A stretch of 63,994 nucleotides of DNA, the filler included, from Rhizaria sp. SCN 62-66 (Eukaryota): assembly GCA_001724265.1 (NCBI GenBank). It is 3 parts of 3 records of this genome, joined end to end, with 100 filler letters (N's around TTAATTAATTAA, not from the genome) between each part and the next. Parts side by side here need not be neighbours in the genome. Positions count along the whole stretch, not along the records: positions 1 to 24,453 come from MEDY01000418.1; 2 more parts are not named here. One strand, given 5' to 3'. The translations under genes and the position numbers were made by a program. Below, piece after piece: positions 1,422 through 61,691 of this stretch (position 1 is its first letter; the number at the start of each line of letters is the position of its first letter). The notes below the pieces were generated by a model. That model had not been told where the DNA came from. It searched no databases and saw nothing but the letters and a program-made list of their open reading frames with translations.

Positions 1422-2594
1422 ATGTCCGCACTTCCGTTCACCAAACAAGGTACGTACCGCTCTCCACATCACTGTAAGGAAATGTTTTTATGGTATGTCT
1501 TTTTGTTTCAGTACAGTCTAACTTGTGTACTCTTATTTTACCCCACCCTTTATATATCCTTGAAAACTGTAGACATCGAGGACCAGCTGCGGACGATGGG
1601 CTTCTCCGACATCCCGCCTGGTCTGCTCTAGTCCTTCATGAGCAAGCTCAGCACGCCCGATGCCAACAGCACCATTGTATCCGCAGTCAGCAGCGACGGT
1701 TTGGAGCCTGTGCCCGCTGCAGCTGTGGCGGACGGCAGTCATGCGACCACCGACAAAAACCAGCTCGAAGAATTGCACCCACAGCACCAACAGCAGCTGC
1801 AGCAGCAGCAGTCGGAGTATCAAGGCTTTGCTGACTATGTGCAGCAACAGCCGCCTTTTCCGCCTGCTCCTGCAACCCTTGTTGCTCCTGCCATTGCCCC
1901 GACGACTGCTCACAGCCACGGCCACGGCCACGGTCAGCTCAGCGACCTGTCTGCGTTCACGTACGTGCCCCGCGCCCCGCTCGTTGCGAGCGCGAGCACT
2001 GCGAGCACCGCGACTGCTGCCGCGGGTGCGCCTGCGGCCGCGGGCGCGGGGCTCGGCGCGAACAACAGCCTTTACTACCCTCTGCCTTCGGTCTCCTTCC
2101 CGCCCGCCGCCCCCCTCTTCTCCGGCAACGGAAGCAACTACAACGGCAACGACGGCGACGCCGACGGGAACGGTGGCGACGCAGCCCGCGGCGCAGCCCA
2201 CGGCGCTGACGTCAACGCGACGCTTGAAGAGCACTACCTAGGTCCCCAGCATGCTCACAGTCACTCTGACAAGGCAGAGGCTACGGACCTTGTAAGGGAA
2301 CACTTACCCGCCGCCGCCGGCTCCGGTCTGAGGAGCGATGTGACCGACAGCGCGTACAACGGGGAGTTTGCGGACCACAGCTACTTAGTCGGGGACCAGA
2401 GCTACTTAGCGCAGCAGGGCAACGCGCAGAGTCACAGTCACATTCACGGCCACCATGGTCAAACTGAGACTGAGGCTGAGTACAGGGCTGCGGGCGCTGA
2501 GGCTGGTGACAGCGATGCCAACGACAACGGCGGCGACGACTACGACTACGACTACTATGGCAACCAGCCGCAACAGGAGCAGCAGCAACAACTC

Positions 2595-4450: not shown

Positions 4451-4946
4451 GCGCTCGCGCTCCCGCTCCCGTCCAGTCACTGCAGCTGCAAGCAACAACA
4501 ACAACATCAGCAACAGCGCAAGTTTCGGTCGCGGTGACAGCAGCTATGCTGGCATCGACAACAGCAACGTCAGCCGCAGCCGCGCTCATCCCGCGCCGCG
4601 CCGGCCCGCTGCTGTGGCGGCGGCGACTGCAAGCATCACGAGCCACCCCCAGCATCGGAGGCCGCGGGACGCAGCCGCCGCGCTGGCGGCCGCCGAGGCT
4701 GCCGCAGCCGCTGCCGCAGCCGCCGCAGCGGTCGCGGCCGAGGCCGCCGCAGAGCTGAGGCGGCGCGCGGGCGTGCAGACGTTTATGCAGGAGCAGCGCG
4801 CGCGGCGGCGCGAGCGCGAGGGACTGCGCGCGCAGACGCGCGGCGGCGCGGGCGGCGGGCGCCGCAGCGACGTGCTGAGCCGGCACCAGCGCTACGAGGC
4901 TGCCTGGGATGAGAGCTTCCTGCGCCGCCGCGGCGGGCTCGAGTGA
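1422..4946 (+). CDS. HYLS1-like centriolar protein, ~1133 aa; exons 1422-1449 and 1573-4946; one in-frame TAG at 1629-1631
   Basis: The spliced N-terminus MSALPFTKQDIEDQLRTMGFSDIPPGLL*SFMSKL resembles the HYLS1 N-terminal motif, and the C-terminus SDVLSRHQRYEAAWDESFL resembles the HYLS1_C motif. The middle is Gln/Asp/Asn/Ala low-complexity sequence. Ends in TGA. Confidence 0.55.
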
Positions 4947-5288
4947 GCGTCGCCCAGGGGCAAGGGCCGAAACCAAGATAGCCTCAGTCGGACCGCTAAG
5001 TGATCGAGTTATCAACATCGATCACCCATGTCGTTGAACGAACCATTTTGATTACAATAGTATTGACAGAAATGTAATGATACAAAAGATATAAGACTAT
5101 TTTTAAAGTGAAATACAGATTGGTCAATTTGTATTGCGATTATTTTCTGTGTTGAAAAGCGTCTTTGTGCGGAGAAATGCATGGCTATTTAATTACTAAG
5201 TAGAGAGGAACAACGACGCAGCTTGCTGTTTTGTGTTGTACGGACCCGCCTTGCCTTGGCTGCCTTGCCCTGCTATCACGCTCAAATC

Positions 5289-5687
5289 TTAGTCGAGCTT
5301 GGAAGAAAGCTTGGGTGCAAGCGGCACGGGCGAGGGGCCGGACACGGTGGTGCCGTAAGCGCGTGCGCTGGCAGGGCCAGAGGGCGCAGACTGCTGCTAC
5401 TGTTGCTGTTGCTGGTCGAAAACCTCGAAGGGAGGAGGGACGAGCTTGAACGACTGGTTGGATAGGATGGACTTCGCAGTCATGAGGATCCAGATGGCCT
5501 GTAGTGTGTTGCGTATCATTTTTGGGGCGAAAAGCAGTGAAAAGTGGTGGCGATTGAGTGGGGAATGGTAATGGTGGGGAGAACAATTTGGATGATAACT
5601 TGAGAAACGTACGAGCGCGACGCCATGGACAATAAGGAGGTACTTGATAATAGTTCCCCAAGGCTCGGGAAGCAAAGGAGCGCCCAT
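5289..5687 (-). CDS. Small single-pass membrane protein, ~94 aa; exons 5687-5613 and 5498-5289; in-frame TAG at 5399-5397
   Basis: MGAPLLPEPWGTIIKYLLIVHGVAL|AIWILMTAK...FDQQQQQ*QQSAPSG...SKLD then TAA. GTACGT donor at 5612, CAG acceptor ending at 5499. Splicing gives one continuous hydrophobic helix. Confidence 0.7.
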
Positions 5688-6718
5688 TTGACTGCAAATA
5701 GTTTGAAGGGATTGCACAAGAATTGTGTGAGGCTGCAAGGAAATCCGGGCGCAAGGCGCGCGTAGAATAGCTAGAATTCTGACGTTATTTGAACACCTAA
5801 CGAGAAATTAAAAGAACAATCAAACAATATACTGACATATCTAACATATAATTCCGTGGATTCCAAATTGACGATAACATGTATGTTTTCCTGATTCATC
5901 AGGACAATGCTACAACCAACGGGTGCTCAAACAAGCTGACTGTGAGCAGGCAGCTCCAACAACGCTACTCGCTTAGTTTAACGTGCGTTAGTTAGCACAC
6001 CCAAGGTGGTTACAAAATCTACATCTTTTCAAGCCAAATTGTTGTGTTGGTGAGCTAAAATACCGTTTTTATTCCTTAAGGAGCCTGTTGCTTCGAGTAC
6101 AAGACTGAAAGTCTCCATGGATAGACCTCTGGGTCCTTATAGTGATTTTAATATGACTAAATTAAAAAAATATACTGTTTAATATATATTATATAACTTA
6201 TAAATATTTTATAAACATTAAATCAGCTATAAAAATATTTTTCCTTAATTTAATGTATAATAGAAATAAGAAGATGTAAATAATGTTAAAATGATTTTAT
6301 TTAACTGTTTACTTTTCTTTTGCTTATTTTAACTTTAAACTAATTTACATCCATGTTATCCCAAAGTCCCCTCATTTTTGACATAACTCCTATAAAACTA
6401 ATAACAAATATATTAATAACTAACAAAATATCATGGTAATTTAATTAATTGTTTTTTAACGATATCAAAAAATATATTTTTAAAGTATTGTTTTGATTTA
6501 AAATACTTGCTTTAAAAAATATTTAGTCTAATTTATATTGTTTTATTAAAAGTTTACACATGTTAATGCTTTGTAAAAACGCGATGTAATATCAATTATT
6601 TTAACCTCTAGTCGTTGCCGCTGGTCACGAATTGAAAGGACAGATCCGATACCATTTGTTTCAAACAAATTATACTGAAATGCTGTTAAATGTGCTAAAA
6701 AAGTGATTAACACTTCTT

Positions 6719-8508
6719 TTATGCACTGGGCTCCCACTCGTCATGGAACTTGCCAGGCATGTCTGTGCGCTCGAAGGTGTGAGCACCGAAGTAGTCACGT
6801 TGCGCCTGTGTAAGGTTGGCAGGAAGACGAGCACGGCGATACGTGTCAAAGTAGCTGAGCGACGCCAGCAGCGCAGGCGCAGAGATGCCAGCGTCAATGC
6901 TTAACTTGCAGATGTGGCGCAGGTGTGGCGCAGCGCCTGCGACAACGGTTGCGACCTCCGGCGCCAGCAGTAGGTTCTCAAGCCCCGGCTACTTGGCGTA
7001 TACGCGTTGCATAGTGGCAAGGAAGGCTGCACGGATAATGCAGCCGCCTGTCCAGATGCGCGCAATCTCGGCCAGCGGCAACTCCCAGCCGCGTAACGAG
7101 CTTTTGGTCCGCAGCAGCGCCATGCCCTGCGCGTAGCTCGCGATCTTACTCGCATACAGCGCCTGCTTCACCGCCTCCACCACTCCATACTTCTCTTCAT
7201 CATTTAACGTGACAGACTTACCAGTGCTGCCATGAGCAATAATGCTGCCGTAGAGCTTAGCGGCGGTCTGCCGCTCAGCGTGCATGGCGGCGAGCTGCCT
7301 GGCGGTGAGCGCAGCGGCGATGGTGGGCACTGGGACGCCCTCCAGAGCCGCGTCGCGCACCGTCCACGTGCCCGTGCCCTTCATCCCGGTCTTGTCCAGC
7401 ACTACGTCTAGAAGGTCGCCGCTCGAGCCTTGCTTGTCGGCGACGCGTAGAACGCGCGCAGTGATCTCGACAAGGTACGACTGCAGCTCCTCCCCGTCTT
7501 GGTTCCATGACTCGAACACGGCCGCGATCTCGCGGTTCGTCATCCCACACACCGTACGAAGCACGTCGTAAGCCTCAGCAATGAGCTGCATGTCGCCGTA
7601 CTCAATGCCGTTGTGTACCATCTTGACGTAGTTGCCTGCGCCGCCGGGGCCCAGGTACGTGACGCACGGAGCGCCCCCGACCTGGGCCGCGATCTTGCTC
7701 AAGATCGGCTCGACGCGGTCGAACGCAGCGCGCGGGCCACCGGGCATGAGCGACGGGCCGTGGCGCGCGCCCGTCTCGCCACCGGAGACGCCCAGACCTA
7801 GGTAATGCACGCCGTGCGGGGCGAGCTTAGCGGCGCGTGCCTCAGTCTGCTCCCACCACTCGTTGCCGCCGTCGATGAGCGTGTCGTCAGCAGATAACAG
7901 CGGAAGCAGTGTCGCGATAGTGCCGTCCACAGCCTGCAAAAGAGGTTGGAATATAAGTAATTTCAACAAACACACGTATTAGTTTGTTTAGTTCATCGCG
8001 AAACATCATGTTACAATTGTTAGAGGGTTTCACCCCATGCAGCGGTGCGACTTAAAGTAGGTTTATTTCAAGTCTGTAGAGATGATAACGTACGATACCA
8101 GCGTCAACCATGATGAGAATAACACGAGGAGTAGATAATGAAGCGACGAACGCCTTGGGATCATGGATCGCAATGACATTGCTCTTGAGCTCGGCCTACA
8201 ATCAAGATAAGAGAGAAGTCAACGAAGGAGCAGTGAGTCACAACAAAGACAGGTGATAGCGCATCAAGGAGTCGTGGGATGGGACTGTAACAAAAGTTAA
8301 ACGAACAATTTGGCGTATATAACTTAGTATTGTTAAAGATTTGTCGATTTCGCACCTTTTGAGCCTCCTCGACGGCCTGATCAAGGCGGGGTTGAGAGCG
8401 GTTGGAGATGGCTACACGGAATCCTTTGGAGGCGATGTTTAGGGCGAGGTTGCGACCCATAACGCCCATGCCAAAAACGCCGATATCAGCCTTAGTAGCA
8501 CAGCTCAT
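6719..8508 (-). CDS. gnd: 6-phosphogluconate dehydrogenase (decarboxylating), ~489 aa; exons 8508-8356, 8195-8094, 7933-6719; in-frame TAG at 6991-6989
   Basis: GMGVMGRNLALN, DGGNEW, VKMVHNGIEYGDMQ, WTGGCIIR and, beyond the TAG, the conserved LPANLTQAQRDYFGAHTFER. Ends in TAA at 6719. Confidence 0.97.
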
Positions 8509-21280: not shown

Positions 21281-24200
21281 TTATTCTTTGCGCGGCACAG
21301 CGTGCGCGATTTGAGTCGCCACAGGAGCCTGGCTGCCAGAGTCAGTACTTGCACCCGCATTCACATTGGCACCGGCATTCCTGTTTTTGCCCACTGGCAT
21401 CGCCACCTGCGGCTGTGACAGCTGCTGCTGCTGCTGTGCCGCGTTTGTAGGGGCGGCAACGGGCGGCGCGGCAGCAAGCGTCAGCACCTTGGCCCCCATA
21501 GCCTTGGCCTCGCACTGCAACAACGCACCCGCCGACCGCATTGCATTCGCACTACTCCCCGTCGCATTCGCCGCAGCACCGCTCTTACTCTTGCTGCTGG
21601 TCGCAGCAGCAGCAGCAGCAGCAACCGTCGCCGCTGTGGTGGCCTCGGCGGCGGCGTCAGCGGCAGCGCTGGCGGCCTCGGCCGCCGCCTCTGCCGCGAC
21701 CGCTGACAGATTGCTCGCACCGACGCTGCTGCTGTTGCTGCTGTTGCTGGCAACGGTCGCGAGCGCGGCGGTGAGCGCGGCCAGCGCGGCGCCGCCCCGG
21801 AGGTGGAGCGCGGCGAGTACAGCGCGGATGTAGCGCGCGTCTGCGGCCAGCTGCACCGCGGCCGAGGGCGAGAGACCGTGAGCGGGGTCTGCGGCCGCGG
21901 CGGCGACGCGCGAGCAGAGCGCGGCGACCGCGGCGGCCGCGGCCGAGGACAGCCAGAGCAGCGGGGCCGGGCGGGACAGCGAGGACGCCAGCGACAGAGA
22001 TAGGGGCGGCGACTGCGACTGCGAGAGAGTGAGCGACTGCTGCTGCTGTTGCTGCTGCTGCTGATGCTGCGAGCGGAGCAGCAGCATGCCGAGAGCAGTG
22101 GCGAGAGGCAGCGGGGGCGCGGCGGCGGCGGCAGCGTCCGCGCTGTCGGGCGACACGAACACGCTCCGGCGCGCGGCGGACTTGGCAGTAACGCTCGCAC
22201 TATCATGGCTGCCGTCGTTGTCAACATCACTATCGTCGTCGTCGTCGCTGTCGGTGCTGCCACACCCGTCGTCGTCGGCACTGAGAGCGTTGGCGCCGAG
22301 GTGACCGACGGCGTCGAGGTCGTCGTCCTCGTCGTGACCGTCGGCGCCGCCACTCTTGTTGCCGCCCCGGTGCCCAGCTCCAGCGCTGGCGCCGGCGCCC
22401 GCGCCGCCCTGCTTGGCGCCACGGTGGTCCGCGGCCGCGCGCTTGAGCCGGCGCCGGAGCCGCACGCCCACGGTCTCAAGCGCGCGCGCCAGCACCGGCG
22501 CGGCGCGGCCCGGCGTGCGGAGAATGCCCTGCGCGAGCGCGCGCGCCCAGTGCCACAGCAGGCCCTGGCGGGGCCGCGCCAGGGACCGCTCCAGAGAGGT
22601 CACCAGGCGAGAGCTAGAGCTTGCGCGAGAGATCGAGATAGCCGTGCTGACGACCGCGTTGCTGCTGCTGCTGGAGGCGTTACTGCTGTTACCGATGCTG
22701 TTGGCGGCGAGTGCGTGCGCGAGCAAGGAGGCCAGTGCGGACGCGGTGTCGACGACGACGGCCTCGGCCTCAGCAGCCGCGGCCGCGGTCGCATTCGCAG
22801 CGGTCCTGGCGCCCGCGCTGTAGCTGTCGCGATCATGATAATCGTCGGCAGAGTTCGCGTTGGCGTCGGCGCTCGCGAGAGGCGTGACCGCCGTCGCAGC
22901 GTCAGTCAGCGCGCGGACGCTGACCCGAATCACACCGCCACTGCCGCGAGCGCCGCTGCCGCTGTAGTTGTGGCCGCCACCGCGAGCGCCGCTGCCCAGA
23001 CTGCCGGCGCTTGCGGAGAGGTTGGTGACCGTGAGCGCGGCCTCGACCCCGCCAACCACCGCGACGAGCGCCTCGCCCGCCGCAACGGCGCCGACAGAGG
23101 GCGCGGAGAATAGCGGCAGCGCGCCCGCGAACCGGTGGCTTCGCGCCCCCGCCCCCGCTCCCGCCATAATAGCGCCCGCGGCCGCGGCGGGCGCGGCGGC
23201 ACAGGCGGCGGCGACGGCCGCGGCCAGGTGCGCGGCGGCGGGCGCAGCCAGCGCAAAGGCCGCAGCGTCCAGGGCGTGCGCGAACAGTGGCCACAGGGCG
23301 GCGGCAGCGCGCGGCGGCAGCGGCCAGAGGGGCTCGCGGGGGCCGCGGCCGGCGCCGGCGCCGACGAGCGTCGAGCTGGCGCTAGAGCTTGATGACGAGC
23401 TGCGACTGCTCGCGCTAGAGCTGCTACTGTTGGTGTTGCTGCTGCTGCTGCTGCTGCTGTTGCTGGGGTCGGTGAGGGCGAGGGCCGCGGCGGCGGTGGC
23501 GGCGTCGGCCTCGGCGGCGGCGGCGGGCGCGGCGGCGGCGGCCAGCAGCGCGCGCGACAGAGCGACGGACAGCGGCCGCTGCAGCTGCCACAGCAGAGGT
23601 AGGGATGACGACGATGATGATGACGAGAACTGGTCGCTGTTGCTCGCACCGCAGAACGCGCTGAAAAGAGCGCAGTTGATGTCGCTAGTCGTGCCGCTGC
23701 TACTGCTGTTGTTCTGAGCACTGTGGGTGTCGTTGTTGCTGCTCTTGCTGGCGGTCGAGCTGGAGGAGGCGAGTGCGAGATCCAGAGCGAGCGCGCGCGT
23801 GTGACACAGGGGCACGAAGAGGGGCAGCGCCTGCGCCGCGGTGTCGGGGCTGATCGTCGAAACCGCACTCGCCGTCGCAGTCGCGGAGTCAGCGCCGCTG
23901 GCGGTGGTCGCGAGGGTAGTCACAGTCGTCGTCGCCGTCGTCGTGATGGTTGTAGTGCCCGCGACGTTGTTGTCGCGAGCGCTAGCGGCGTTGCTGAAGA
24001 CGGCGGGTGACTTGAGCTGGTCGGCGTCCGCGTCCGCGTCGTTGTCGTTCTCGTCGCCGTCACCGTGTCCCTGGCTGTCGGCACTGCTGTCGTTGCCATT
24101 GCAGCTGTTGCGGAGCCAACCGGACAGCCACGGCGCATTGGACGCGCGAGAGAGCGAGCGAGCAGCGTCGCCGCCGTCTCCACTATCGCCGCTGCCATAC

Positions 24201-24453
24201 GCCGTCACAGGGGTGAAGGCGGCCATAGCGACGGCGACGGCGGGGTCGCCCGCGCCCGCACTTTTAGCCTGGTTGCCCGACCTGTTGCCCTTCTTGGGAA
24301 CCGCGAGACTGTGGCCGCCGTAGCCGCCAGTCGCCTTGCCGGTGTTTCTCGCGGCCAGCCGCCACGCCGGCAGCGCAGCCGCCAGCGCGGCCCGCACCGC
24401 CCCCGCCGCGGCCTCTGCGCAGCGCAGCACGGCCGTCGCCGCCGCCGCCGCTA
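21281..24453 (-). CDS. COG7-like Golgi tethering subunit, C-terminal part; 5' end lost at the contig break
   Basis: LPLFSAPS...GEALVAV and WLSSAA...LSPSAAVQLAADARYIRAVLAALHL resemble COG7 C-terminal motifs as recalled. The frame is open to the gap and ends in TAA. Confidence 0.5.
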
Positions 24454-24553
24454 NNNNNNNNNNNNNNNNNNNNNNNNNNNNNNNNNNNNNNNNNNNNTTA
24501 ATTAATTAANNNNNNNNNNNNNNNNNNNNNNNNNNNNNNNNNNNNNNNNNNNN
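24454..24553. other. Artificial contig linker (Ns flanking TTAATTAATTAA)
   Basis: 100-nt N block with a six-frame-stop palindrome at 24498-24509; identical to the second gap. Confidence 0.97.
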
Positions 24554-24988: not shown

Positions 24989-27900
24989 TCAGTTGAAAAG
25001 GTGACGCTTTACTCCAATGTACCTATCGTTGAATTCCTGCGTCTTATATACAGCGTACTCCTGCGACGTGTCCGCCTTGTTGGCGTAAAAGTTCGCCAGC
25101 GCGCGGCGCGCAGACTCAGGCGCCTCATCAAGAGCGGCAAAAACGCGGCGGGTACGACGAGCCGCGGTCAAACGTACTTTTTCCTCATCTGTCAGCGATA
25201 AATTCATGCTGCAGCCGTGGTCTTTAGTGCACTTCACAACGTGTTTGTGCATGTCGGCGCGGGTTGGTGCGGTGGCGTCAAAGCAGACACCGCAAAAGTG
25301 GTGCTAAGGAAGACTAGTATTGTCGCATTGCACTGCGGCGCAAGCTTCCCAATCGATCACCATGCTGCCACAGCCTGGCATCGGGCAGTGGTCACGTAAG
25401 GCGTCCTGCAGCTTCTCAACAACGTCCCAGTGTTCTTGCTCAATAGGGTCGCGCGTCGTAAAATCTGGGTCGCCAAAACGGTGTGTCTTGTTGCATGACG
25501 TGCACTTGAAGTACTTCGAGTTCTGAGTGTTCGCAGAGACCTCGTGAATCTCAAAGCAGCGCGTCGAAGGGCACTTGACAAACTCGTGCTCCGGGTCCGA
25601 ATCGATGTAGGTCACGAGCGCAGCGCCAACAAGGCCGTCGACGTCCTCGCGGCTCAGAGCGCCCATCGGCAGATCACAGAGCAGCAGCGATTGATGACAA
25701 ACCGAACACTTGATCTTCCCACCTTTGATATCGGGAAGAGCGTTCTGCAAGCACTCCGTGCAAAGCAAATGGTCACACAAGAAGGGTGCAAGACCAAGGT
25801 TAAGGTGCGACACAGGCTCCCCGCAGGTACAGCACTGGTTTTTGGCACCATTTTTGCTCAGCTCGTTGCGGTGCGTTTCATTGGTTTCCTTGAACAATTG
25901 TCCACGGCTCCTAAACGTTGCTTCAAACTCCTCAACTTGCCTCTTCGAACCCGAAACGTAGAACGACTTCTTTGTGCTTGTGGCTTCAAAGTCGACAATA
26001 GTTGCCTTGCTAGCCGAGCGAACGGACTCGATTGCCGTCGCGGGCGTGCTGGCAACAACCTCAACAAGCTTATCGACCACCTCCATGGAAACTAGCTCGG
26101 CCACGAGCAACTTGACGTTGGCGAGCATCTTTGTGGATGCATCCATGCTGCTGTAGACAAACATTGCGCAAGACGTGCGACAGTAACGACCCCATGCGGG
26201 TCCAGTGCCCTTACGTTGGCTGATTAAGGTGGCAATCTTCTTGGTCGCGGTGGGCCCAGCCATACGCCGGACAATCTCCAAGCAGCGAGTCGTAGTCGTG
26301 TCAATTTTGTGCTCAGCACACGTGATGACGCTCTTGAGTGTGTCAATGCGCTTAACGTCAGCCAGGCCAACAGTTACAACGACGTGGGTTTTGCTCAACT
26401 CATCGCGCCCGATAGAGCTTTTGTTGTCAGGCGAGTCCAGTTTTGAGCTAATGCACTGCTGCAACTCATCGCCAATTGCGTTACCTGCGTCAAGCGGCAT
26501 GGTGATACTGAGCACAAATATCTTACCCTGACACTCGAGGCTGTCGATGTTACCAAGCTCAGCCTTTGTGGGCACAACGGGGCACGACGCCATAGTAACA
26601 TCGGCGTAGTAGCGCTTTGGCTTGGACTTATAGAGGAAGCCTGAGGACACAACCTTCATGTTGCGCTCAGTTACAAACGCGGGCAGCTTGCGCTCACCGT
26701 TGGCGGACCACGTAAAGCGCACGCACTGCTCCACGCGCCGGCGCACTGTTGGGTCGGGGCTGACGCGATAATCGCCCTCCGCTGCCGAAATCAACTCAGC
26801 AGTGCGCGCGAAGGCGTAGGTCCCGTTATTCTTGAGGTATTTGTGTACCTCGGCTGCGTCTGTGCTGCTCGCGCATACAAGCGTCACGCGCAGATTCTGG
26901 GAGTCTTCCTGTGGCGCTGAAACAACTGTGACAACCTTCTTACTCACGCCACGCAACGCGCGCTGACGGATACGGAACTCAGGATAGCACTCGTTTAAGG
27001 GTACATCAGTGAGACGCATCATCGCAGTCGCGCCGCTCGGTAGCAGGTTTGTGGCTGTAAGCCCAGCGCCACAAATGACCGCAGTACCGTCACCAATGTC
27101 AAACTGACGCTGCTCACACAGCATCCTCTCTCGGGTCTCTTGCATATGATCCTTGAGTAGATCGAGGGCTTTCTCAAGGTTAGTTGCGTTGTGAGCGCGC
27201 ACGGTGACGTAACCAGATCCCAGCTGGAGCGTGCAAATGTTGCCGTAGCGATTCTCGAACGCCTGAATGTGCCAGACACCGGGGAATGCGGCGTTAAGCT
27301 GACCAACCGTGTAGCTGTTGATCTCCTGCTCGGCCATCTGCGGCATGCTGTTCATGTACTCGCTGCACTTCTTGTACATGCTACTACTCTCACGGGTAAT
27401 CCAATCCAGCTCGACGGCGTACGGCGGCGTTGTGATGATGAACTGATTTTGCACGGCGTGTGACGTGAGGAACACGGACCAGTCACGAGCCTTCATGATG
27501 TTTTCAGCAGTCTGGGGACGCCAGTTAGTAAGAATCCTACCGCTTGCAACATGCACGTACTGGGCTTGGAACATCGCTGTACTCTTGTTCGCGGCGGCCT
27601 CTTGAACTGCCTTGGGCACAAGCTTAAGCAAAGCGTGCGTAAAGTAACCAGACGCAACGCATTCGCACACCATTTTAGACGAAATGTCGCTGACCTGAGG
27701 CTGTACGTTTAGCGCGGACGGCTCGGCAACGCTGGCGAAGAAATTCTTAAAGTCACTGCTAGCGCGCTCAATCCACTTTTCTGCCAGCGTAAAGTACTCG
27801 CGCGGAAGCTTGCTCTCGTTCATAATCTTATGCTTGTCCATAGACCCGGACACCCATTCGATAATAAACTTCACGCAGACAGACAATGCAACAGGCTTCT

Positions 27901-30247
27901 TAGTGCAAACGCTGGTTGCCGCATTGTTTGCACTCTCCGCATCTCCCGCGCTCCTGCGCTCGTTTTCTGCACCATCCGCCGACGCCACGCCAAGTCCGTT
28001 GTAGCCCGGGCTTGACACGTGCACAAGTTGCAGTGCCGCAGCCACGTACAGACCGATCGAGTTCCTGTGCCGCTTCATGGCCTCCCAGACAACACGCGTA
28101 AGCTCGATTGAGCAGCCCACGATGACACTTAAGCGACCGTAGTCGGTAATGGTGTAGCTCTTGCCGTCGTAGTGAACAGCTTTGAGATCACACAAGTCAT
28201 CGAGTGCCTGCTTGACGCTGTTTTCCGGGGGACGCTCAAACCACTCGAAGTTTAATGGGTTCTTGCGCAATGAGATAAGTGCCATCAGCGTCGTCTGCAG
28301 AGGCTGACTGAGCACCACGGGGCGGTTCGACGCTGGAAAGCGCTCAAAGTCATCCTTGCCGTACAGGCGCACACAGATGCCGGCGCGCGTGCGGCCCGCG
28401 CGTCCGGCGCGCTGGGTGGCAGAGGCCTTCGAAATGGACTGCAGCGACACGTGTGCAACGTGCGTCTCGGGGTTGTACTCGGTCGCGGAGCGTAGTCCAG
28501 GGTCAATGACAACAGCAACGCCGTCAATCGTCAGTGATGTCTCAGCCATTGCTGTCGCCAAGTACACGACAACGGTCGCACGTTTTTCATCGGCTTCGAT
28601 GTGCCGCTGTGCCAGCTGTTCCTGCTTGGGCGTCAAAGTTCCACTCTGAAACAACGGCAGGTTGGATGCGGCAGCCAGCTCGCTTTCGCTGTCGGTCAGA
28701 GTCATAGTCTCGTAGCATACATCGACAGCAACGCCGCGCGTGTGCGCCGGGCGGCGCAACGCACGGTTTGCCGCCTCGACGTCGGCGTCCGTCGGAAGAA
28801 AAACGAGGACGTTACCTTGCGCGCGCCCGCAGAGGTCACCACGGAAGTACTCATCGACGGCGCGCACAGCTGCAGCCACAACAGTGCTAGCGCTGAGACG
28901 CTCGACAGGGGGACGATACACAATCTTGAGCCAACTGTGCGCGCTCTGAATATCGACGTGTTGGACTTTAAGTCCAGAAGCCTCGAAATAACGTTTGAAT
29001 GCGTTGGCGTCAATCGTGCCCGACATCACGACGAGCTTGACACCAGCGCGCGCGGCGTCGGCCGCAAGCTCCAGCAGCACGTCACTTTCGATACTGCGCG
29101 TGTGCGCCTCGTCGACAACAATGCAGCCAACGGTGGCCTTGGGAACAAGCTCAGACACCTTGTCTCCACGGCCCTTGTCGATAAGCGCGCGGTAAGCGCT
29201 AATGACGTCGCTCTCCGACGCATATGCAATGCGCAAGGTGTCCGGGGCGTTCGCGCAAGCACTGCCCAGGCAGTATACCGCATCTTTGAAGTGCTTTGGA
29301 ACGTCCTTAAGAGCGTCAGAGACTACCTCGGCGTTATTCCTGACCTGAGTATTGGCCTTGAGTAGGCCGCGAACCTTGAAGCAGTCGCCGGCGAAGACAT
29401 CGCGTACGTATTTGGCAAGGCTAAATGCCGCAATGCGATGCGGCTGCGAGCACAGCACAATCTTGCCGTCCATGATGCTCATGTCAGCGATGTATTGGGG
29501 CACGAGAGTACTCTTACCACAGCCGGGCGCACCGGTGACGAGGACGACGTCGTTCGAAGCGACTGCTTTCTCGATATCGTTGCGAGCCCACCGTGCCGCG
29601 TGCTTACCGTTCAGCAGAGCTGCCTCGCGCCGCGCATAGCTGAAGAACTCAGTGCACTGACTTGCGCTAGTAGCAACGCGCTGTAGCGCAGCGAGCTTCG
29701 AGTTGATGCGTGTGCGTACGACGTTGAGGTAGAGCGTGAGCTTGGCCTCCTCTGCAGCCTTGTCCTCGTCAGACAGATTACTATGCGTCGCGCGAATGAG
29801 GTCGGCCACAGCTTCAACTTCCATGCCACAGTGGCTTGCAAGGCTGAGCAAGGTGGACAGACTCAGAGAGCTGCTTTGTGCTGGAGTGGAGGGTGTAGTG
29901 GAGGAGGACCTGGTACTGCTGCTCGCAGCCTTCTGGGGAGTCGACTTAAGGGAGGAGATCACATTGGGCTAGGGCCGGTTCTTAGCCGCCTCATAATCCT
30001 TATCGTCGCGATGCGTGTAAGGGCAGATGTTGCATGCGTTTTCGCCAATCTTGCACAACGCACGAAGTCCCTTGAAACTGCACAAAGCTGTTGCGCCAAC
30101 ATGACGATCTGTGCACCCAGGCTTCTTGCACAACGCGGTACGTACGTAGTAGCAGAGAGGAGTGGCGTGATTTCGGCAGTTGTGCCGAAAGCACCCATAA
30201 CCATGCTTTTGGTTATGTGGGTCCCTCTCGAAGACGCACTCTTGCAT
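24989..30247 (-). CDS. CCCH zinc finger + DEAH-box helicase + RBR (RING1-IBR-RING2) ubiquitin ligase, ~1752 aa, intronless CDS; in-frame TAGs at 29971-29969 and 25306-25304
   Basis: ORFs 29969-30247, 25304-29962 and 24989-25252 share one frame and are separated only by TAG. Motifs GAPGCGKST, VVDEAH, MSGT, AETSLTIDG, QRAGRAGR and C-terminal Cys/His clusters. Ends in TGA. Confidence 0.88.
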
Positions 30248-35127: not shown

Positions 35128-38100
35128 TTAAATGAGCCCAAAGCCTTCAGCGTAGGTGATCGCCTTAAGCATCAGGCTGCGGAACTTCTCCTCCGTGGCG
35201 TACTCGGGGATACACACATGGTTGAAGCACGTGTGCGCCGTCGGCAGCCTGTCGCAGTCGGGCCCCCCGCGGGTGAACGTGAGGACCAAGTCGCCCAGGC
35301 CGGCAACGGGGGCGCGCGGGCTGCCAGTCGCGAAGGCCAGAAAGCGCTTCTTCTGCTCCAGGTCCAGCCCGTGCAGCAGGCGCCAGATCCACGCGACCAT
35401 CGGAGAATGCTTCGAATATCCGTCCGCATACCGCGCCGCACGCTCTAATTCTCCGAAGTCGAGCTCCTCACAGCCGCAGACGATGCGCTGCAGCTCCGCC
35501 GGCTCCAGTTGCGACAGGATCGGACTGTCGCAGCACTGCAGGAAGCCCGCGCGGAACGCCGAAAACGCCGTCTCGATCGCCGAGTTGAGCGTGTAGCTGA
35601 CCTTGGCGTCGACGAAATCGCCGCGAGACGCGTTGGTCACGGTGCGGGTTTCGCCGCCTTTGCAGAGCGGGACCTCGGTGGTGACGCCCCAGGCCGTCTG
35701 CGGCGTCGTGAACGTGGCGCAGTACGTGCCGGCCACGTCGCCGGGGAACTGTAGCAGGGACAGCAGCGCGCTGCAGTCAGCAGGAAAGGCGCCCATGTAG
35801 TCCTTCAGTGTGACGGGGCGACCGAGCAGCTTGGCGTACCTGCGGGGGATTTAAGAGCATAGATCGAGATTAAATCCAAGCAAAGTTAGAAATGTCATTA
35901 AAACTTAGTATACCAATAGATTAGTAGGAGTTAATGTTGGATTGTCAATGTTATGAAGAAAGTTTTGTGGTAACGTACAGGACAGTGGGGAAGGAGAGCG
36001 GCAAGATGATATTGTTGTGAATCGCAAGGCCAATCAGGATACCAATCAGCTCAAACGTAGACCGTGAGTCAAACGTGTTGGGGTTGATCCAGCACACACG
36101 CGCAGCAGTCCTGCCATTTGTCGCTGCTCCAGTCGAAGTCGCAGCTGCTGTCGCAGGCGCACGGCTATCGCTCGCACTCGCGCTACCACTGGAGCTGGAG
36201 CTGCCGTAGTCGTCAGAGGGCGTGACTTCGTTGCCGTCGTGGTCGTAGTAGACAAACATGCCGTACTTGGGATCCAGCAGCTCTCCAGTCACGAGCTGAA
36301 AGAACTCCTTGCTCACGCCTCCTTGGTCGATTCCCTGCTCGCCTTTGAACTCGACCTTGAGCGGCAGCTTTAGGTGGTACGACGAGCACTGCTGCAGCAC
36401 GTTGAGTGTGTCCTCAACCAGCGCGTCGCGCCGCACGCGCAGCATGAGCGCGCGCCGGCCCATCCCGCCCATGAAGGAGCCCGCGAACTGGGTGCGCTCG
36501 TTCATCGCCCGCATCAGCTTCGCCTTCCCCGCTGTGTCGAGCACGCGGAAGCGCGACCACCAGCCGTCGCCGCCGCGGCGCTGTGTGTCCAGGTCGTCGT
36601 GCGCGTCGAGCGCGTCACTCACGGACTCGGCCTGGAACCACTCCGCGCGCAGACGCGAGCGCCGCAAAGCCTACAGTTCGGAATATGACAAAGCAAAGAA
36701 GTAAAAGGTTGTGAGATCGAAAATACAAAATAAAAATATATAAATGACATTATACAATGCATTTTTAGCAAAGAAACGTACTTGACTGGGCGCGTGCGCA
36801 GGCACTGCGGCCGCAACGAGCCCCGCCGCGCCGGCCCTGTCCTTCGGGACAGGCTCGTTGCCGACGGCGGCGGCCAGCGACCACAGCATTCCGCGCCACG
36901 ACAGCCGCTGGTAGCCGGCCGCGGGCGTCGTCAGCGGCATCGCCACCCACTGCGCGGGCTCGATGACCGTGAGCAGCGCGTCGAGCCAGTCGGCAAAGGG
37001 CCAGCGGCGGCGCGCGTGCTCGCCGGTGACCGTGAGCACGGCCAGGTGCTGCTGCGCGGGTAGCGCCAAGGCGTTGAGCCGCGCAGGAGGCAGCGCGCGC
37101 AGCCAGTCGGCGAGCAGCGACGCGGCCGCGGCGGCCGTGGCGGCGGCGGGAGTCGCAGCGGGGGTGGTCAGAGCGGTGGGCGTGTGGCTGGCAAAGGACG
37201 AGTTGGTGAGCGGGAAGCCGTGGAGCGCGCCGGTGGTCGCGGCGGTGGTGAGGACGGGGTACGGGGCCGAGTGGCGGGCGTAGGAGACGCACGATTCGGA
37301 GCGCTCGGGGTCGGAATTGTTTAAGTACTTAAAGGCGGTGTTGAATTCGAAGGAGTTGAGACGCTCCTGCAAAGCGCGTTCTTCGTGCTCCTCCTGCTCC
37401 TCCTGCTGCTCCTGGTGCTGCTGACGCGTTTGCTCAGATGCCAAGTCGGTCTCTGTGTCGTCCGTCATCGGTTGACTCATGCTTATAACACTCGCACGAG
37501 CACTCGCGCTTGTACTGGCACTGGCGGCGCTCGAGTCGCTATTGTCGTCGCCCGCTGAAGTCGTCGATGTGGCGAGCAAAAGAATGGGCGGGGGCGCAAT
37601 CGCCTCGATCCCAACACTGTTGACATTGAGCGTCGCGCTTGCACTGCCGCTAGAGCTAGAGCTGAGGCTCCGGCTAGAGCCACTACCGCTGCGGCTACTG
37701 CTACTGCTAGAGTAGGTACCGGCGCCAGTGCCGTTCGCAGTCATCTCAGCAGCAACAATGTCCTGCTTAAGCGGCGGCTGCCACCGGTGCGCGGCCCGCA
37801 GATGCCCGCCAGAGAGCAGCGGCGAAACCCCCTTGATCTTGCCCAGCGTCAGCAGCAACGCGTAATGGAGCGTGGCGGCGACGTGCGAGAGCACGGGCGA
37901 GTCCAGCGCGGGGTACGCCAGTAGGATCAGCACGGCGCGGACGTGCAGCTGCGAGAGCGGGTCGAAGCACGCGGCGGGATGGGAGTCAGGCTTGGCGCTC
38001 ACGGCGGAGTCTAAGGGGTCCTTAGACAAGCGGGGGGGGCGACGCTTAGACTGGGCATCGGTCTCAGCACTAAGGGCTGTCTCTGCAGCGGGGGACTCAG

Positions 38101-41100
38101 TACCCTGAGCAGACTGAGCAGCGTCGCCCTTAGATTGAGCGGAGGCACCCTTAGACAGTTCAGAGGCACCCTTAGCCTTCGACCTCGATCTCGAGCGAGT
38201 CCGGGTGCTTACGCTCGCGTTCTCCTCGTCGTCGTTATCATCGTCGTCCTTCATTGCAGCAACAGCAGCAGCGCTGCTACTGGAGCTAGAAGAGCGTGCG
38301 TCGGCGTTGCTCTCGATCGTCTCGGTGTCAGGAACGTCCTCAGTGTCAGGAATGCTGCTGTTGTTGCCAGCGCTGGTGCTGGCCGGAGTCAGGCCGTTGA
38401 AGCGCAGCTTGGGGAGAATGAGCGCCAACTCAACCGCACGGCGCTCCTGGCCCCTCTCGCTCACGACCTCACTCGCACTCGGACTCGAGCTAGAGCTAGA
38501 GCCAGAGCCAGAGCTCGAGGTCGAGCCGTTGCTGCTGCTACTGCTGCTTGCACTGGGACTGCGGCCGGAAAGCATGCTCAACAAGTTCGCGAAGATATTC
38601 CCGCCGCCACTTGCAGGGCTAGGAGCGCTCGCACTCGAGCTCGCACTGATGGCCTTGAGCGGGGTGCTGGAGCGGATGCTCTTGCCCTTCTTCTTGGCCG
38701 TCGCGACAGAGTCGGACTGAAGCGCCTTCTCTTCCTCCGCCCACCGCGCCAACACCTGCTCACGGTCACGCGCCTCAAGATCGCTCGCCTCACGGTCACT
38801 CTTGGCCTGTTTCGCCTGCAGCTGGCGGCGGAGCTTATACAGCTCCCACTCTTCCTCGCTCTCGGCGAGCTCGCGTCGCACAGTCGCGCTCGCGTTGGCG
38901 ACAATCGACGACACAGTCGCGGTCGCCTTAGTTTCGTCGCGGATCTTGGTGCAGAGCGCGTTGAGCGCCTTCTCGAAGCTAAGCCGCGCGGGGGTGTTTC
39001 GAAGCAAAGCCGTGTAGAAGTTGTCGAGGAGAACCCAGTCGATGCCGGGCGAGTCTGAGGTCGAGGCCCAGTGCACGAGCCCGTGGCCGTGGGCCGCGAC
39101 CGCGGCAGAGTGACCGTGGGCGGCAGGACTGGAAGCAGAGCGGCTGCGGGTAGAATGCATGTGGCTGTGAGCGAAGTGACTGTGCGCGGCGGCCACCTGA
39201 CGGTGGGTGAGCATGCGGAGCCGCTCGGCCTCGATGACGGCGTCGAAGGCGCGCGCAGTGACCGTGAGCGAGCGCGGCGACGAGACCAACTCGACGCCGA
39301 CACACTTAGTCTCGCCCGCGGGACCCTTAGACGCGCCTGACGCAGCACCCACACCCTTAGATGATGGTAACAGGAGCTCGGAAACAACGGCACGCAGACG
39401 ATTGTAACGCAACTGCAGCTGTGATTCGTCGTCTTGAGCACTCGCGCTCGCACTCGCGCCATCGCTCGCGCCAGCGCCGTTGGCAGTGCTGTTTCGACTG
39501 CCAGCGATGAGCGAGCGAAAAGTGCGCATCGCCATTGCCGCAGTATGCGCTGAGTGGCGCGCGAGATGTCCCAGAAACAAGAGCGAGTCCTCCTTAGAGC
39601 GGATGGCCCACTGCTCCTCCACCGAGTAGGACTTGAGACTCGTCTTGAACGGAGGCAGACTTTGCGGCGCTTCGGTTAAAACTGACGACGACGACGACGA
39701 TGACAATGATGACGACAAGGATGAAGAAGGTGAGGAAACAGGTGCAGTAATGCGTTTTGCGAGCACATTCTCGACCTTCTGCGCTGCTTCGAGCGTCTTT
39801 TCAGTGACTGTGGGGCACGCCACCGATGTAAGTACCCTCAGCTCGGCTGGTGTAAGCACCGCGGACACGTCTAAGGGGGTTGGTTGCGCGGACTTGTCTG
39901 GCGAGCACAAATCTAAGGGGTGGCCTCGGAGCCGTAGCGTCGCGTGTGAGAAGTCCGAGAGTAAGGGCCGCGGCAATGTAAGGGGCAAGGGAGGAAATAG
40001 CGCAGAGAATGTAAGCACCTCGTGGGTCACCCAGTCAGACACAGATGCAGCCATACACGGGGAAGAGTTGCTGCTAAGGTCAGAGAAGTCATACTGCTCA
40101 TCAGGGCCAGTAGCACTTGCACTGGCACTGGCAGTGCAATCTTCGCGGGTGTTCGCGGAGTGGTCGTTGCTCGCGACAGTCGCAAGGGCAGCAAAAACAG
40201 TGTCAATCAAGCTATTGTTGCGACTACTGTCGCCTTTGTCGTTCGCAGCCGCAATCGCACTCGCAGAGATCTCGCTATTGTTCGTGTTATTACCGCTGTT
40301 GTTGTTGCTACGGGCGAGAGCAACAGCTTCGGTGTGAAGCTCTGAGAAAAAGGTCGAAAAAGCCGCAATCTCACTCTCTGTCGCCCTGTCGTAAGTCGAC
40401 ACCGGGCTTGTATTGTCGCCGGTGTCATCGCTGTTGTCGCTGATGTTGTTGTTATTGGCGATGTTGATGCCGTTGTCCGTGCTGCTCACGTTGTTCTCGC
40501 ACGACAGAAGAGCCTTGACCAGCGCGTAGCGGCGCCTCTGTCGCTCACGCGCCCTATAGAGGACAGTTTGCACGATCTTCTCAAACATTCCCAAGTCCGC
40601 GCGGCTCTCCAGCGCCCTTCTAGCGCGCGAGCGAACCGGAGAGGACGGCAGCGCGTATGCGCCGGCGTGCGCGGCCGTCGACACCGCGCGCGCGGCCGCG
40701 GCCGCGGCGACGGCGATGGTGGTGCGGGAGCAAAAGAGCAGGGACCATGAGCAAAGCGGGTCGCCGGGGGCCAAAAAGGGGTTTTCGTCAATCGCGGCAA
40801 CGCTCAAAGCGGTGAAAAGCGACTGGGTGTCGACCGCGCTCTCTTTCGAGCTCCTCTTAGTGGTGGAAAGACGAGAGTTGACACTCTCAGTATCGGTCGT
40901 GTTCGAGTCGGTCATCGCTTTATCGTTGTCGTCATCGTCGACGTCGTCGTCATCGTCGTTAGTGATGCTCGGGAGAGTGTTCGCGTTGGCGACTGCGTTG
41001 TGAAGAGAGACGTACGACTGCAGTGTGTGAATGCAGGCAGCGCGCAGCTCCGAAGTCAAGCCGCCCTCTGAGGCCTCGCACTGAGGACGAAGCAAGAGCC

Positions 41101-43141
41101 GCGCGCACGCGAGCGCAACGGTAGCAATTGCAGACTCAGCAGCCGTCGCGGGGGCCGACGCGCGCGCCAGCGTCGCGACCAAAGCGTGGCCGACAACGCC
41201 GTCGCTCGTAAAGCTGCGGGCGGACGTGTCAGCGCTCGCGTGGGCGGGGGCGCGGGCGTCAGCGTTGGCGTTGCTCGAGAGAGCGAAGTGCTGCTGCAAC
41301 ATCGCAGTCTCGATCTGCTGCTGGCGGAACCACGCGTTCTCCCCCAGCCCCGGCGCGAGGCCGTACTGGTACTTGAACGGGTCCATCGAATCTGACAGCA
41401 TCGCGGCGTAGCTCTGAGCGTCTGTCGGGAAACAGCCTGTGTTGACGCGAATGGGCACGTTATGTCCGCTGACAGAGCCAGTTTCCGCCGCAGGAGACGT
41501 TGCACTCGCGTCAGTCATGGGCTGGCTGTTCAAACTAGAACTAGAGCTAGAGCTTGAGCTGCTGCTCTGAGGCGCGAAGGTCAGCCGGTTGCTCTTCAAG
41601 TCAAGCCGTCCCTGCTTCAACTCAAGCCGCTCCCGGGCGTGCATTTCCCTCGCCTGCGCCGCCCCCTGCGCGGCGGCGATGTCCGGCAACACGGCGCCCG
41701 CGGCGCGCATGAGCACCGAGATGGGCCGCGTCTGCGTGAACGACGCGCCCAGAAGGGCCAGGTCGCCGAAAACGGCCGCGATCGAGCGCGGGCTGACGGC
41801 CAAAGGGGCGTACGGGTCGACCGACGCCGCAGCCGCCGCAGCCGCAGCAACAGCAGCAAACTGAGATTGGTCGGCATTGTCGTTGTTGTTCTCATTGTCA
41901 GCGTTGGCTTGCTGGCTCGTGAGCGCGCGACGAGCCTTGGCGACGGAGATGTACCGGAAGTTGCTGCCCCTATTGTTGCCGATCGAGCTCGCACTGGAGC
42001 CCAGCGTCGCGGCAAGCGCGCGCGCGTCGAGCTCGGCGCTGTTGGTGGCTCTACCGCTGCCCGCGGCGCCGCCAGCGCCCGCGCGGGGGCCAGATCCCGC
42101 GCGCGCGCCCCGGGCCGCGGCGGGGCGGGTGCTGAGCGCGGACAGCGCATCGGACATGGCCGCAAGATCGTTGCTGGGGCCGCTCGAGCTGGAGCTGCCG
42201 GAGGCGGAGGCTGGCGGGGCCAGGGCGTCGCTACTGCCAGTATTCGCAGCGGCGAGCGAGTCTGACCGAGACCGAGTCTGCGGTCGCGATCGAGACTGCG
42301 AGCGCGAGAGTGACGGTGACCGAGACTGAGACTGCGAACGAGAGTGCGACTGCGGCTGGCCTTGCGTGCGTGGCCGAGACCGCCGCATCTGTAAGCGCGC
42401 AGCAGCAGCATTCGCAGCCGCATTGACGGCACTGGCGGACAAGGCGGACGAGCTGGGATCGGGGAACTGTGATGTGAACTGCAGCGTCCGGCAGTAGCGC
42501 ACCGGGACGCGCCAGTGCAGCGCGGGCAGCATCGCGGCGGCGAGGGCGGCGGCGTGCTTCCGCGTCACGAAGCACGGGTCGTCAAACTGGTCGAGGGAGA
42601 GAGCCGTGGCGGCCGCGACCGGGTCTTCATCGTCGTCGTCGTGCTCTTCCTCTTCCTGCGCTTCCGTTTTGCCCTCACTCTTGCCCTCGACCTCGCCCTC
42701 GCTCTCGTTCTTGCTCTTGCTCTGACTGGCGTCACCAGGCGCACTCGCACTCGCGCTCAAACTCGCAGCAGGCGCGGCCATGGTCGCAGCAGGGGCAGTG
42801 GCAGTGGCAGCTGGGGCAGCAGCTGGGGCAGGCTCAGAAGCAGCAGCAGTCGGAGCAGCAGGAGCGATAGAGTCAGTGGCAGCAGCCGTGCTCTGTTGCG
42901 TCATCGCCGCTGCGGTTGCCGCAGCTGCTGCAAGGTCTGCGGGGCACGAAAGCGGCGTGTTGTTGCGCATCAGCAGCGCCGCCTCTTTAGCGGCGTCGGC
43001 CGTGGTCCGCGCTCCCGGGCCCTCGGGGTTCGAAGCGCAGTGCGCGCTGCGACATTGTGCGTCGCCGCAACCGGTGCGGAGACGCGCGAGGTGCTGCGTG
43101 AACAGCGCGCGGGCCGCGGACTGCGCAGCGGGGAGGGACAT
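35128..43141 (-). CDS. UBE3A/E6AP-type HECT E3 ligase with N-terminal AZUL Zn finger, ~2587 aa; exons 43141-36782, 36670-35979, 35839-35128
   Basis: N-terminal LRTGCGDAQCRSAHCASNP. HECT motifs VEFKGEQGIDQGGVSKEFF, FATGSPRAP, LPTAHTCFN (catalytic Cys), EGFGLI followed by TAA. Confidence 0.93.
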
Positions 43142-49023: not shown

Positions 49024-49123
49024 NNNNNNNNNNNNNNNNNNNNNNNNNNNNNNNNNNNNNNNNNNNNTTAATTAATTAANNNNNNNNNNNNNNNNNNNNN
49101 NNNNNNNNNNNNNNNNNNNNNNN
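49024..49123. other. Artificial contig linker (Ns flanking TTAATTAATTAA)
   Basis: Same structure as 24454-24553. Confidence 0.97.
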
Positions 49124-54766: not shown

Positions 54767-54798
<32 letters not shown>

Positions 54799-60700: not shown

Positions 60701-61646
60701 GCGCGCGGGGCACCGGCAGCCCCGCCGGCGCCGGCGTCAGCGCCGCTGAGAGGCTTTGCGACGCCCCTGCCGTCGCCGGTTGTGACGCCGTCGGACCAAG
60801 TGACTGCGCCGGGGACGCGGCGGCCGGCGGCACTGTTGCTGTTGGCTGCAGCGTTGGCCTTGACCAGCGCAGTAGGCGGCCGTGACCGCAGCAGTGACGC
60901 GCTCTCGTTAATGCCACCCATCTCGGCGTCGAGATCGGCATCAGCGTCAGCGTTGGCGTCGGCGTCACCGTCGGCGGCCGTTGTTAGAGAGGCCTCGGTG
61001 CCATAGCCATCAGTCTTGTGCACGCGCGAAAGCAAGCGCGCCCACGCGCGCGCGCGCAGCTCCGCCGCGTCAGGCCGCTCGCCGCGCCCCGCCGCTGCCT
61101 CCGCCTCGGCCTCCGCCTCTGCTTCAGCCTCAGCCTCTGCCAGCGCAGCCGCCTCAGCCTCGGCTTCGGCTTCGGCCGCCGCGAGCGCAGCCGCAGCGCT
61201 TTGCCCCTGCCCGCCTGAGACCGCGGACGAGATGGCGTTGGCCGTCTTGCGCCACAGGCCGGCGATCGCGTCGACCGCAGTGCCAAGAACCGACGACGGC
61301 GGCAAGAGGCGGCGGATCGACCGCGACATCCTCAAGTTAGGCCGGGTCAGCGGCGCGCCGGTGGCGGTGCTGTTGTCGGTCGCGATGGCGCTGGGGCTGG
61401 GGCCGTGGCGGCGGTCGCGGTGGCCGCGGCGCGAGTGACCGTGGGCACCGTGGGTTCCGTGGTTGTGGCTGCGTGAGTGAAGATGCGGGAGAGCGCTGCT
61501 GGTGACGCCGCCCTCGCTGACCGTGCCCACGGCGGCGATGGTAGCGACTGCGGCGGCGGCGGCGGCAGCAGCAGCGGCCTCTTTGCTGGGAGCATCGCGA
61601 CCTGTGCGCCCGTGGCTGTGGCCGTGGCCGTGGCCGTGCGGGCCGG

Positions 61647-61691
<45 letters not shown>

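Follow-up and report, generated by a model that had tools for sequence, protein, structure and literature searches.

The genetic code closest to the one suggested by the locus considered here, a TAG codon in a short run of glutamine (Gln, Q) codons on the minus strand of a 63,994-base stretch of DNA from the Rhizaria sp. SCN 62-66 assembly (the whole stretch is hereafter called the window), is that of the fornicate Iotanema spirale. In Iotanema, UAG is reported to encode Gln, with UAA and UGA as stops, an arrangement called unprecedented in 2017; the same report gives 204 in-frame UAGs in 126 genes, with UAG never a terminator and gene ends divided between 104 UAA and 15 UGA (PMC5304391). The window, which is nuclear DNA of an uncultured microbial eukaryote, resembles Iotanema as described there in having in-frame UAG in conserved genes and at no gene end, in the differing meanings of UAA and UAG, and in the predominance of UAA (9 TAA to 3 TGA here). 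It differs in its far lower density of UAG (4 in 14,829 codons); in its setting, Iotanema being a gecko-gut anaerobe sampled as a transcriptome, whereas the present organism is one of wastewater, bioreactors and sludge; and in the number of sites from which Gln is read, dozens of conserved columns there and three here.

Putative UAG-to-Gln reassignment with UAA as the preferred stop is also reported for the phyllopharyngean ciliates Hartmannula sinica and Trochilia petrani (PMC11687900). On that description they share with the window the reassignment of UAG alone and the retention of UAA, but the window is multi-gene, with GC-rich exons (third-position G+C, or GC3, 0.75) and introns of 144 to 160 bases, and uses TGA as a stop as well. 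Phyllopharyngean ciliates are AT-rich and have gene-sized chromosomes.

The code in which both UAA and UAG specify Gln (NCBI table 6) is listed for many ciliates, hexamitid diplomonads, and some ulvophyte green algae, and also for Amoeboaphelidium (PMC5304391). There, as here, a stop lying one transition from CAG or CAA has been captured by Gln, but in the window TAA closes most genes (9 of 12 ends) and is found nowhere in frame. UAG is reported as leucine for exLh, a rhizarian (PMC5304391), and for phyllopharyngean ciliates known from uncultivated material (PMC11687900), again with UAG alone reassigned and UAA still a stop; the difference is in the amino acid, the window's three informative sites favoring Gln over Leu. 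Finally, crAss-like phages are described as reading TAG as Gln ("code 15"; PMC9523058), on paper the same codon table, but theirs are phage genomes with a suppressor transfer RNA (tRNA) of their own, whereas the window belongs to a eukaryotic nuclear genome with spliced genes.

The reading that best accounts for the polyglutamine (polyQ) TAG, with a probability that we would put at roughly three in four, is that it is translated as Gln within an organism-wide code change; the window is then a probable new case of the TAG-only Gln code already known. UAG would on this account no longer be a terminator but a rare sense codon, a third codon for Gln, with UAA (predominantly) and UGA still serving as stops. 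The polyQ TAG would be a synonymous C-to-T variant of CAG, and translation would run on for 35 codons to the next TAA. Decoding would fall to a tRNA of Gln identity with a CUA anticodon (a tRNA-Gln derivative) or to an ordinary tRNA-Gln, and recognition of UAG by the release factor would be lost or weak.

The PolyQ Site

The initial annotation had read the tract on the minus strand as QQQQQ*QQ, with 33 more sense codons before a TAA; a direct reading of the sequence agrees on each point and places that TAA at 5291-5289 (Table 1). The peptide across the tract is FEVFDQQQQQ*QQSAPSG.

Table 1. Coordinates of the polyQ site, its gene, and the other genes and RNA features bearing on the meaning of TAG.
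Feature	Position	Strand	Evidence or detail
Gln-codon tract CAG CAA CAG CAA CAG TAG CAG CAG	5391..5414	minus	direct reading; translation QQQQQ*QQ
Codons within the tract	first CAG 5414-5412; TAG 5399-5397; last CAG 5393-5391	minus
In-frame TAG, sense, most likely Gln; next base C	5397..5399	minus	unchanged in contigs of complementary DNA (cDNA) library X5 and of run X4
Coding segment, 69 codons including TAG, then TAA 5291-5289	5289..5498	minus	codon log-odds, GC3
5' part of polyQ gene, alternatives	5499..5687	minus	predicted from sequence
207-base contig of cDNA library X5	5208..5414	not given by contig	0 other letters, 0 gaps
6-Phosphogluconate dehydrogenase gene, three exons	6719..8507	minus	TAG 6991-6989, TAA 6721-6719; introns 8354-8195 and 8092-7933 spliced out in cDNA
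Helicase-RBR gene	24989..30247	minus	TAGs 25306-25304 (RING2-like loop) and 29971-29969 (linker after Cys/His-rich N-terminus); stop TGA
Doubtful fifth TAG, MGFSDIPPGLL-TAG-SFMSKL	1629..1631	plus	3 codons before first standard-code ATG of a 1102-amino-acid open reading frame (ORF)

Base composition by itself makes a 35-codon open frame fairly common (the chance is estimated at roughly 1 in 2 at about 70% G+C). Openness therefore tells us little, and codon bias was used instead. Log-odds scores were trained on 14,122 codons from the long ORFs of the window, set against their off-frames and opposite strand. By this measure the sequence past the TAG (35 codons) has a score of +16.8 bits and that ahead of it (40 codons) one of +11.9 bits, the remaining five frames at the site ranging from -10.4 to -44.8; divided at the boundaries of the coding segment, the scores are +13.6 for 5400-5498 and +16.8 for 5292-5396, with GC3 of 0.79 and 0.74, respectively. 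For comparison, in-frame coding windows of 35 codons (n = 399) have a mean of 12.8 and a standard deviation of 9.0. Among 302 non-coding windows with G+C of at least 0.5, none reaches 16.8 and one reaches 11.9, and just 0.2% of 1995 off-frame windows reach 16.8. Stretches following real stops all score at or below -0.1 (7 of 7), each with a further stop, and the polyQ frame itself falls to -4.4 past its TAA. By these scores and controls, 5498-5292 has the character of coding sequence both before and after the TAG and loses it at the TAA. The initial annotation's proposal that TAG behaves as a synonymous variant among Gln codons is supported, as to TAG being sense, by the score past the TAG and by the cDNA contig that retains it.

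The segment 5289..5498 is probably the last exon of a small orphan gene; no Pfam family matched its ORF in the correct frame. Upstream there are two options: a candidate first exon from ATG 5687 to 5643 (AAG/GTAC), with a codon score of only +3.7, followed by a candidate GT..AG intron of 144 bases at 5642-5499, or a gene start at an ATG that lies in frame upstream of the tract, at 5519-5517. Within the candidate intron there is also, in another frame, a 36-codon ORF (5520-5626, minus strand; MASRSYVSQ...SPQK) with a codon score of about +10, whose TGA overlaps the ATG at 5519 (ATGA).

In-Frame TAGs Elsewhere and the Stops in Use

Fourteen TAGs in 11 candidate frames were inspected, of which five were kept and nine dropped. 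Those dropped (at 900, 36673, 31612, 17760, 43234, 18203, 63796, 8900, and 8804) resemble intron acceptors (..TAG/), untranslated regions (UTRs), or non-coding frames. Reading TAG as sense joins or lengthens several ORFs.

In the 6-phosphogluconate dehydrogenase gene, TAG stands in the context GCC AAG TAG CCG. A public prediction under the standard code, P0004 (313 amino acids), ends at this TAG, but the protein reads VYAK before the TAG residue and then on through PGLENLLLAPEV, and 89 conserved codons past it, including QAQRDYFGAHT, align with homologues. Query coverage is at least 95% for the best 119 homologues listed, apart from the window's own P0004. Both of the cDNA-verified introns of this gene (7933-8092 and 8195-8354) are exactly 160 bases long, with GT..AG ends. 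A metagenome scan with the dehydrogenase found the same organism only as a 3125-base contig (L001), which ends before the polyQ gene; the next best locus was 57% identical, and P0005, a relative with 64% identity, was not among the 80 loci.

The helicase-RBR gene has two TAGs. The C-terminal one (CTT CCT TAG CAC) lies within a RING2-like Cys/His motif, with homologues aligning on either side of it; the window's own entry P0247 (1506 amino acids) ends there, and P0249, P0251, and P0253 align to the part beyond. The N-terminal one (CGG CCC TAG CCC) is no more than probable, the codon score of the preceding 91 codons being -5.9. In a relative, the orthologue of this helicase (54% identity across 551 residues) is split into two database fragments, P0248 and P0249, with the break falling between matches to window residues about 553 and 650, the region with the window's TAG; this relative may share the in-frame stops. 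A scan of prokaryote genome contigs with a helicase fragment yielded no related sequence among 55 candidate stretches. The doubtful fifth TAG, which follows an upstream ATG that is only a candidate start, is flanked by coding-like sequence on both sides (+7.5 and +15.8).

In-frame counts over the 14,829 codons of the gene set are 4 for TAG and 0 each for TAA and TGA; the zeros are partly by construction for orphan ORFs, and are meaningful for the dehydrogenase, the eIF6 and IscS exons, and the HECT domain. TAG thus makes up about 0.03% of codons, as compared with 491 CAG and CAA in the 14,122-codon training set. The IscS and eIF6 exons have no TAG; nor do six long orphan ORFs, of 1045 to 4548 codons, and because none lies within them, these ORFs can be taken truly to end at TAA or TGA. 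Among 12 gene ends in the window, 9 are TAA, 3 TGA, and none TAG; in one of these the HECT profile is matched up to position 305 of 306, the match stopping one residue short of the TAA. Since coding signal or homology passes through the in-frame TAGs and none of the 12 genes ends in TAG, TAG appears to be a sense codon in this organism, and a rare one.

The Amino Acid

The initial annotation favored Gln over Leu, Tyr, or Glu, and two kinds of comparison lend support to this choice. The first is the composition of the window's own proteins (15,096 residues), in which the context QQxQ surrounds 48 of 525 Q, 2 of 1058 L, 2 of 246 Y, and 1 of 648 E; with Q required only on both sides, the corresponding counts are 71, 9, 4, and 4. 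The QQxQ rates give a likelihood ratio of about 10 to 60 for Gln over the other three residues, assuming that TAG codons are distributed like other codons for the same amino acid. There are 15 further Q-runs of at least four in the window, all composed of CAG and CAA.

The second is the RING2-like loop of the helicase. When its TAG was masked as X in a BLASTP search, X fell opposite Q in P0255 (GLPQHYFCGYC) and P0254 (GIQQHLFCGIC), the only two of 17 homologues to share the longer loop, in alignments that are gapless from X to the FCG.C motif. The columns compared give a mixed picture, with Q in 2 of 2 homologues sharing the loop and in none of 119 at the dehydrogenase site (see below). For the polyQ gene, a word-index search for orthologues matched only the window's own 96-amino-acid ORF (1 protein among 2 candidates).

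A posterior for the amino acid was calculated with a flat prior, BLOSUM62 conditionals, and one effective observation per site. This crude measure gives Q a value of 0.65 when only the polyQ site is used, 0.93 once the loop is added, and 0.92 for all three sites, the next residue being N at 0.03; it is indicative, and not proof. From these sequence comparisons, Gln appears to be the best-supported, and most likely, meaning of TAG.

TAG in RNA and in Other Samples

Several collections of contigs from other samples cover parts of this region. Contigs of X5 and X6, from a study different from the likely source of the window, join position 7932 to 8093 and 8194 to 8355, each junction leaving out 160 bases that begin with GT and end with AG on the minus strand; in the 3.8 kb examined, neither introns nor intergenic DNA are covered by them. 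Because their joints skip introns and intergenic DNA is uncovered, X5 and X6 hold spliced cDNA of this organism, whatever their label; apart from the polyA metatranscriptome runs X14 and X15 no run is recorded as RNA, and it is the splicing that identifies X5 and X6 as cDNA. Spliced contigs from both cross the dehydrogenase TAG with no differences, and the X5 contig at the polyQ site includes the TAG, the tail, the TAA, and about 80 bases more. The TAGs at 6989-6991 and 5397-5399 are therefore present unedited in RNA. X14 and X15 contain next to none of this stretch.

Run X4, from the same study as X14 and X15 (a third study, of a later year), covers the whole examined stretch, one contig spanning 4939-6812. 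It differs from the window at 5994, 6036, 6164, 6226, 6384, 6562, and 6681 (four single bases and three insertions or deletions, all in AT-rich spacer), and at 7813, a Gly-to-Ser change, and is identical at both TAGs. Since contigs of both X4 and X5 keep it, the polyQ TAG is not an assembly slip.

Alternative Readings

Several points weigh against the translation of TAG as Gln throughout this organism. Only three of the sense TAGs are solid, with one more probable and one doubtful. The absence of TAG from 12 gene ends is weak evidence, since a stop used about 20% of the time would be missing from a set of this size with a chance of about 7%. The 64-kb window yielded no tRNA gene, and there is no eRF1 among the genes identified in it. 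At the polyQ gene, the 5' end and splicing are candidates only, as 5415-5800 has no cover in X5, X6, or X14, an absence that is neutral as evidence; the orthologue search described above found no second sequence; and the RNA contig carries no strand information. The C after each in-frame TAG, the lack of Q at the dehydrogenase column, and the small number of homologues that align without a gap at the loop site (2 of 17) also count against it, and are taken up below.

The first of these readings, an unlikely one, is that UAG is still partly recognized by the release factor and is read through where termination is weak, Gln being supplied by a near-cognate or low-level suppressor tRNA, which would make the present state an ambiguous intermediate. 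The Q-TAG-Q setting and the C after the codon would make the polyQ site leaky. C is the next base after each of the four in-frame TAGs (T after the doubtful fifth), as compared with 25.6% of sense codons that begin with C (3611 of 14,122), for a chance of about 0.004, calculated post hoc on a small sample. At the 12 real stops the next base is G in six cases, A in five, T in one, and C in none. In eukaryotes, termination is weakest at a stop followed by C. The pattern would fit an incomplete reassignment better than a clean one, and TAG may be tolerated only in weak termination contexts; its great rarity also accords with this.

There is a mechanistic precedent in standard-code Saccharomyces cerevisiae, in which a QXQ motif around a premature stop is reported, in a 2026 preprint, to promote read-through with insertion of Gln (PMC13192750). 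The likeness to the polyQ site is that of a Gln-flanked stop decoded as Gln by tRNA-Gln, and because Q-stop-Q promotes read-through, this site by itself cannot separate reassignment from an effect of context. The yeast case as described is, however, one of partial read-through of premature stops under the standard code, whereas here the three other TAGs lie outside any QXQ context and are also read, and none of 12 genes ends in TAG. Failure to read through the dehydrogenase TAG would, moreover, cost that protein its conserved C-terminal 89 residues, and the sample is too small for the pattern at the following base to carry much weight. Use of one codon both as sense and as terminator, of the Condylostoma/Blastocrithidia type, is not seen, with TAG ending none of the 12 genes; the C after each TAG would still fit a weaker, context-dependent form of it.

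As a second possibility, TAG might be a sense codon for some other residue (Glu, Leu, Tyr, Lys, or Asn), the one in the polyQ tract being a tolerated missense change in a low-complexity stretch. This seems to us quite improbable, although the UAG-to-Leu codes reported for exLh and some phyllopharyngean ciliates (cited above) are precedents, and CAG becomes TAG by a single transition whatever TAG means, which inflates the contribution of the polyQ site to the posterior. The initial annotation had raised the prospect of TAG aligning with a different residue at a conserved column, and the dehydrogenase site formally touches on this: the column holds N in 108 of 119 homologues, D in 7, S in 2, A and E in 1 each, and Q in none. 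The three closest homologues have A, D, and D, however, and the column as a whole admits polar or small residues with no hydrophobic or aromatic ones, which counts for Gln; by itself the site does not discriminate. In the helicase loop the alignment goes the other way, with Q in both homologues of matching loop length; the other 15 (a gap in 7, M, N, and K in 2 each, R and G in 1 each) are uninformative because their best alignment is gapped at or beside the site. Together with the 10- to 60-fold preference for Q over Y, L, and E in QQxQ, this leaves all residues other than Q with a crude combined posterior of about 0.08.

A third possibility is that the polyQ TAG terminates, so that the protein ends in QQQQQ and the next 105 bases are 3' UTR, either as a long-standing arrangement or through a nonsense mutation recent enough for the older codon bias to persist. 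The TAG is in the last exon, near the C-terminus, where truncation would be least harmful; no orthologue demonstrates conservation of the tail; and open frames of its length are, as noted, common enough at this G+C. Against this, the post-TAG score is one that no non-coding control window attains, real stops are followed by a loss of coding signal that in the polyQ frame occurs only past the TAA, a sample from a different study and year, with differences at other positions, has this TAG too, and TAG is read through in two other genes while ending none of 12. Termination at this TAG is accordingly very improbable.

Lastly, that there is no gene here at all, the tract being a CAG/CAA microsatellite within a non-coding transcript or a UTR (one example being the 3' UTR of a convergent plus-strand gene ending at 4946), would agree with the lack of a Pfam family or homologue, the strandless RNA contig, and the undefined 5' exon, but is scarcely credible given that a strong coding signal is seen before and after the TAG in exactly one frame of six, and that the X5 contig stops short of the plus-strand gene (no cover over 4900-5153).

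Other Features of the Window

G+C ranges from 0.52 to 0.74 across 4-kb blocks of the window and from 0.13 to 0.84 across 100-base blocks near the polyQ site, with AT-rich spacers and GT-AG introns lying between long ORFs of the GC3 given above. This DNA is present in 13 of the 15 runs listed, from 10 studies of bioreactor, wastewater, sludge, and microbial-fuel-cell samples. Genes recognized are those for a plant-type 6-phosphogluconate dehydrogenase, eIF6, a CS-domain (p23-like) protein, a HECT/AZUL ubiquitin ligase, and a helicase with an RBR-like C-terminus; weaker matches, below the Pfam cut-off, are to a class-V aminotransferase (IscS-like) and ribosomal protein S10e. A search with eIF6 among longer proteins returned mis-fused plant, fungal, and animal entries with 60-75% identity. 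Several ORFs, with lengths of 1045 to 4548 codons, match no family. The longest, uninterrupted over 49309-62952 on the minus strand, has no Pfam family at E up to 0.001.

The HECT ligase (35131-43141, minus strand) exceeds 2300 residues and has an N-terminal AZUL zinc-binding domain, as in UBE3A; it contains very long low-complexity stretches rich in Ser, Ala, and Asn, and at least two AT-rich introns split its HECT domain.

Rfam gave no match at gathering score in the window, and none at E up to 1 in 5000-6750. Within the AT-rich spacer between the dehydrogenase and polyQ genes there is an island of about 40-50% G+C (5900-6130, minus strand), with no coding-like frame and no Rfam match. In X4 it has two 5-base deletions (5994 and 6036), which fits non-coding DNA; it could be an uncharacterized RNA gene or a promoter region.

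At 24454-24553 and again at 49024-49123 there is a pair of 44-base runs of N, 12 bases apart; one pair is near the 5' end of the ORF at 21284-24505, and the other is inside the S10e-like exon.

Significance

No report of a wastewater eukaryote with a TAG-only Gln code was found in the literature, though as evidence of novelty this is weak. Few nuclear codes give UAG and UAA different meanings, those described in the sources cited being Iotanema, exLh, and some phyllopharyngean ciliates, and any further independent case is relevant to the way in which the two codons come apart. In practical terms, proteins of this organism are present in public collections in a form cut at TAG (P0004, 313 amino acids; P0247, 1506; P0126, 96), and TAG therefore needs to be read as sense when genes of this organism are called from wastewater metagenomes.

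Codon-capture and ambiguous-intermediate models could usefully be tested against each other on a GC-rich organism with very rare UAG codons that always precede C. Tentatively, and with considerable doubt, it might be a non-ciliate wastewater eukaryote at an early or incomplete stage of UAG-to-Gln capture, in which UAG has gone from gene ends and come back as a very rare sense codon (less than 1% of Gln codons), tolerated so far only at the weakest sites for termination, in every case before C and once within a Q-run. If so, it would offer a natural snapshot of the uncoupling of UAG from UAA.

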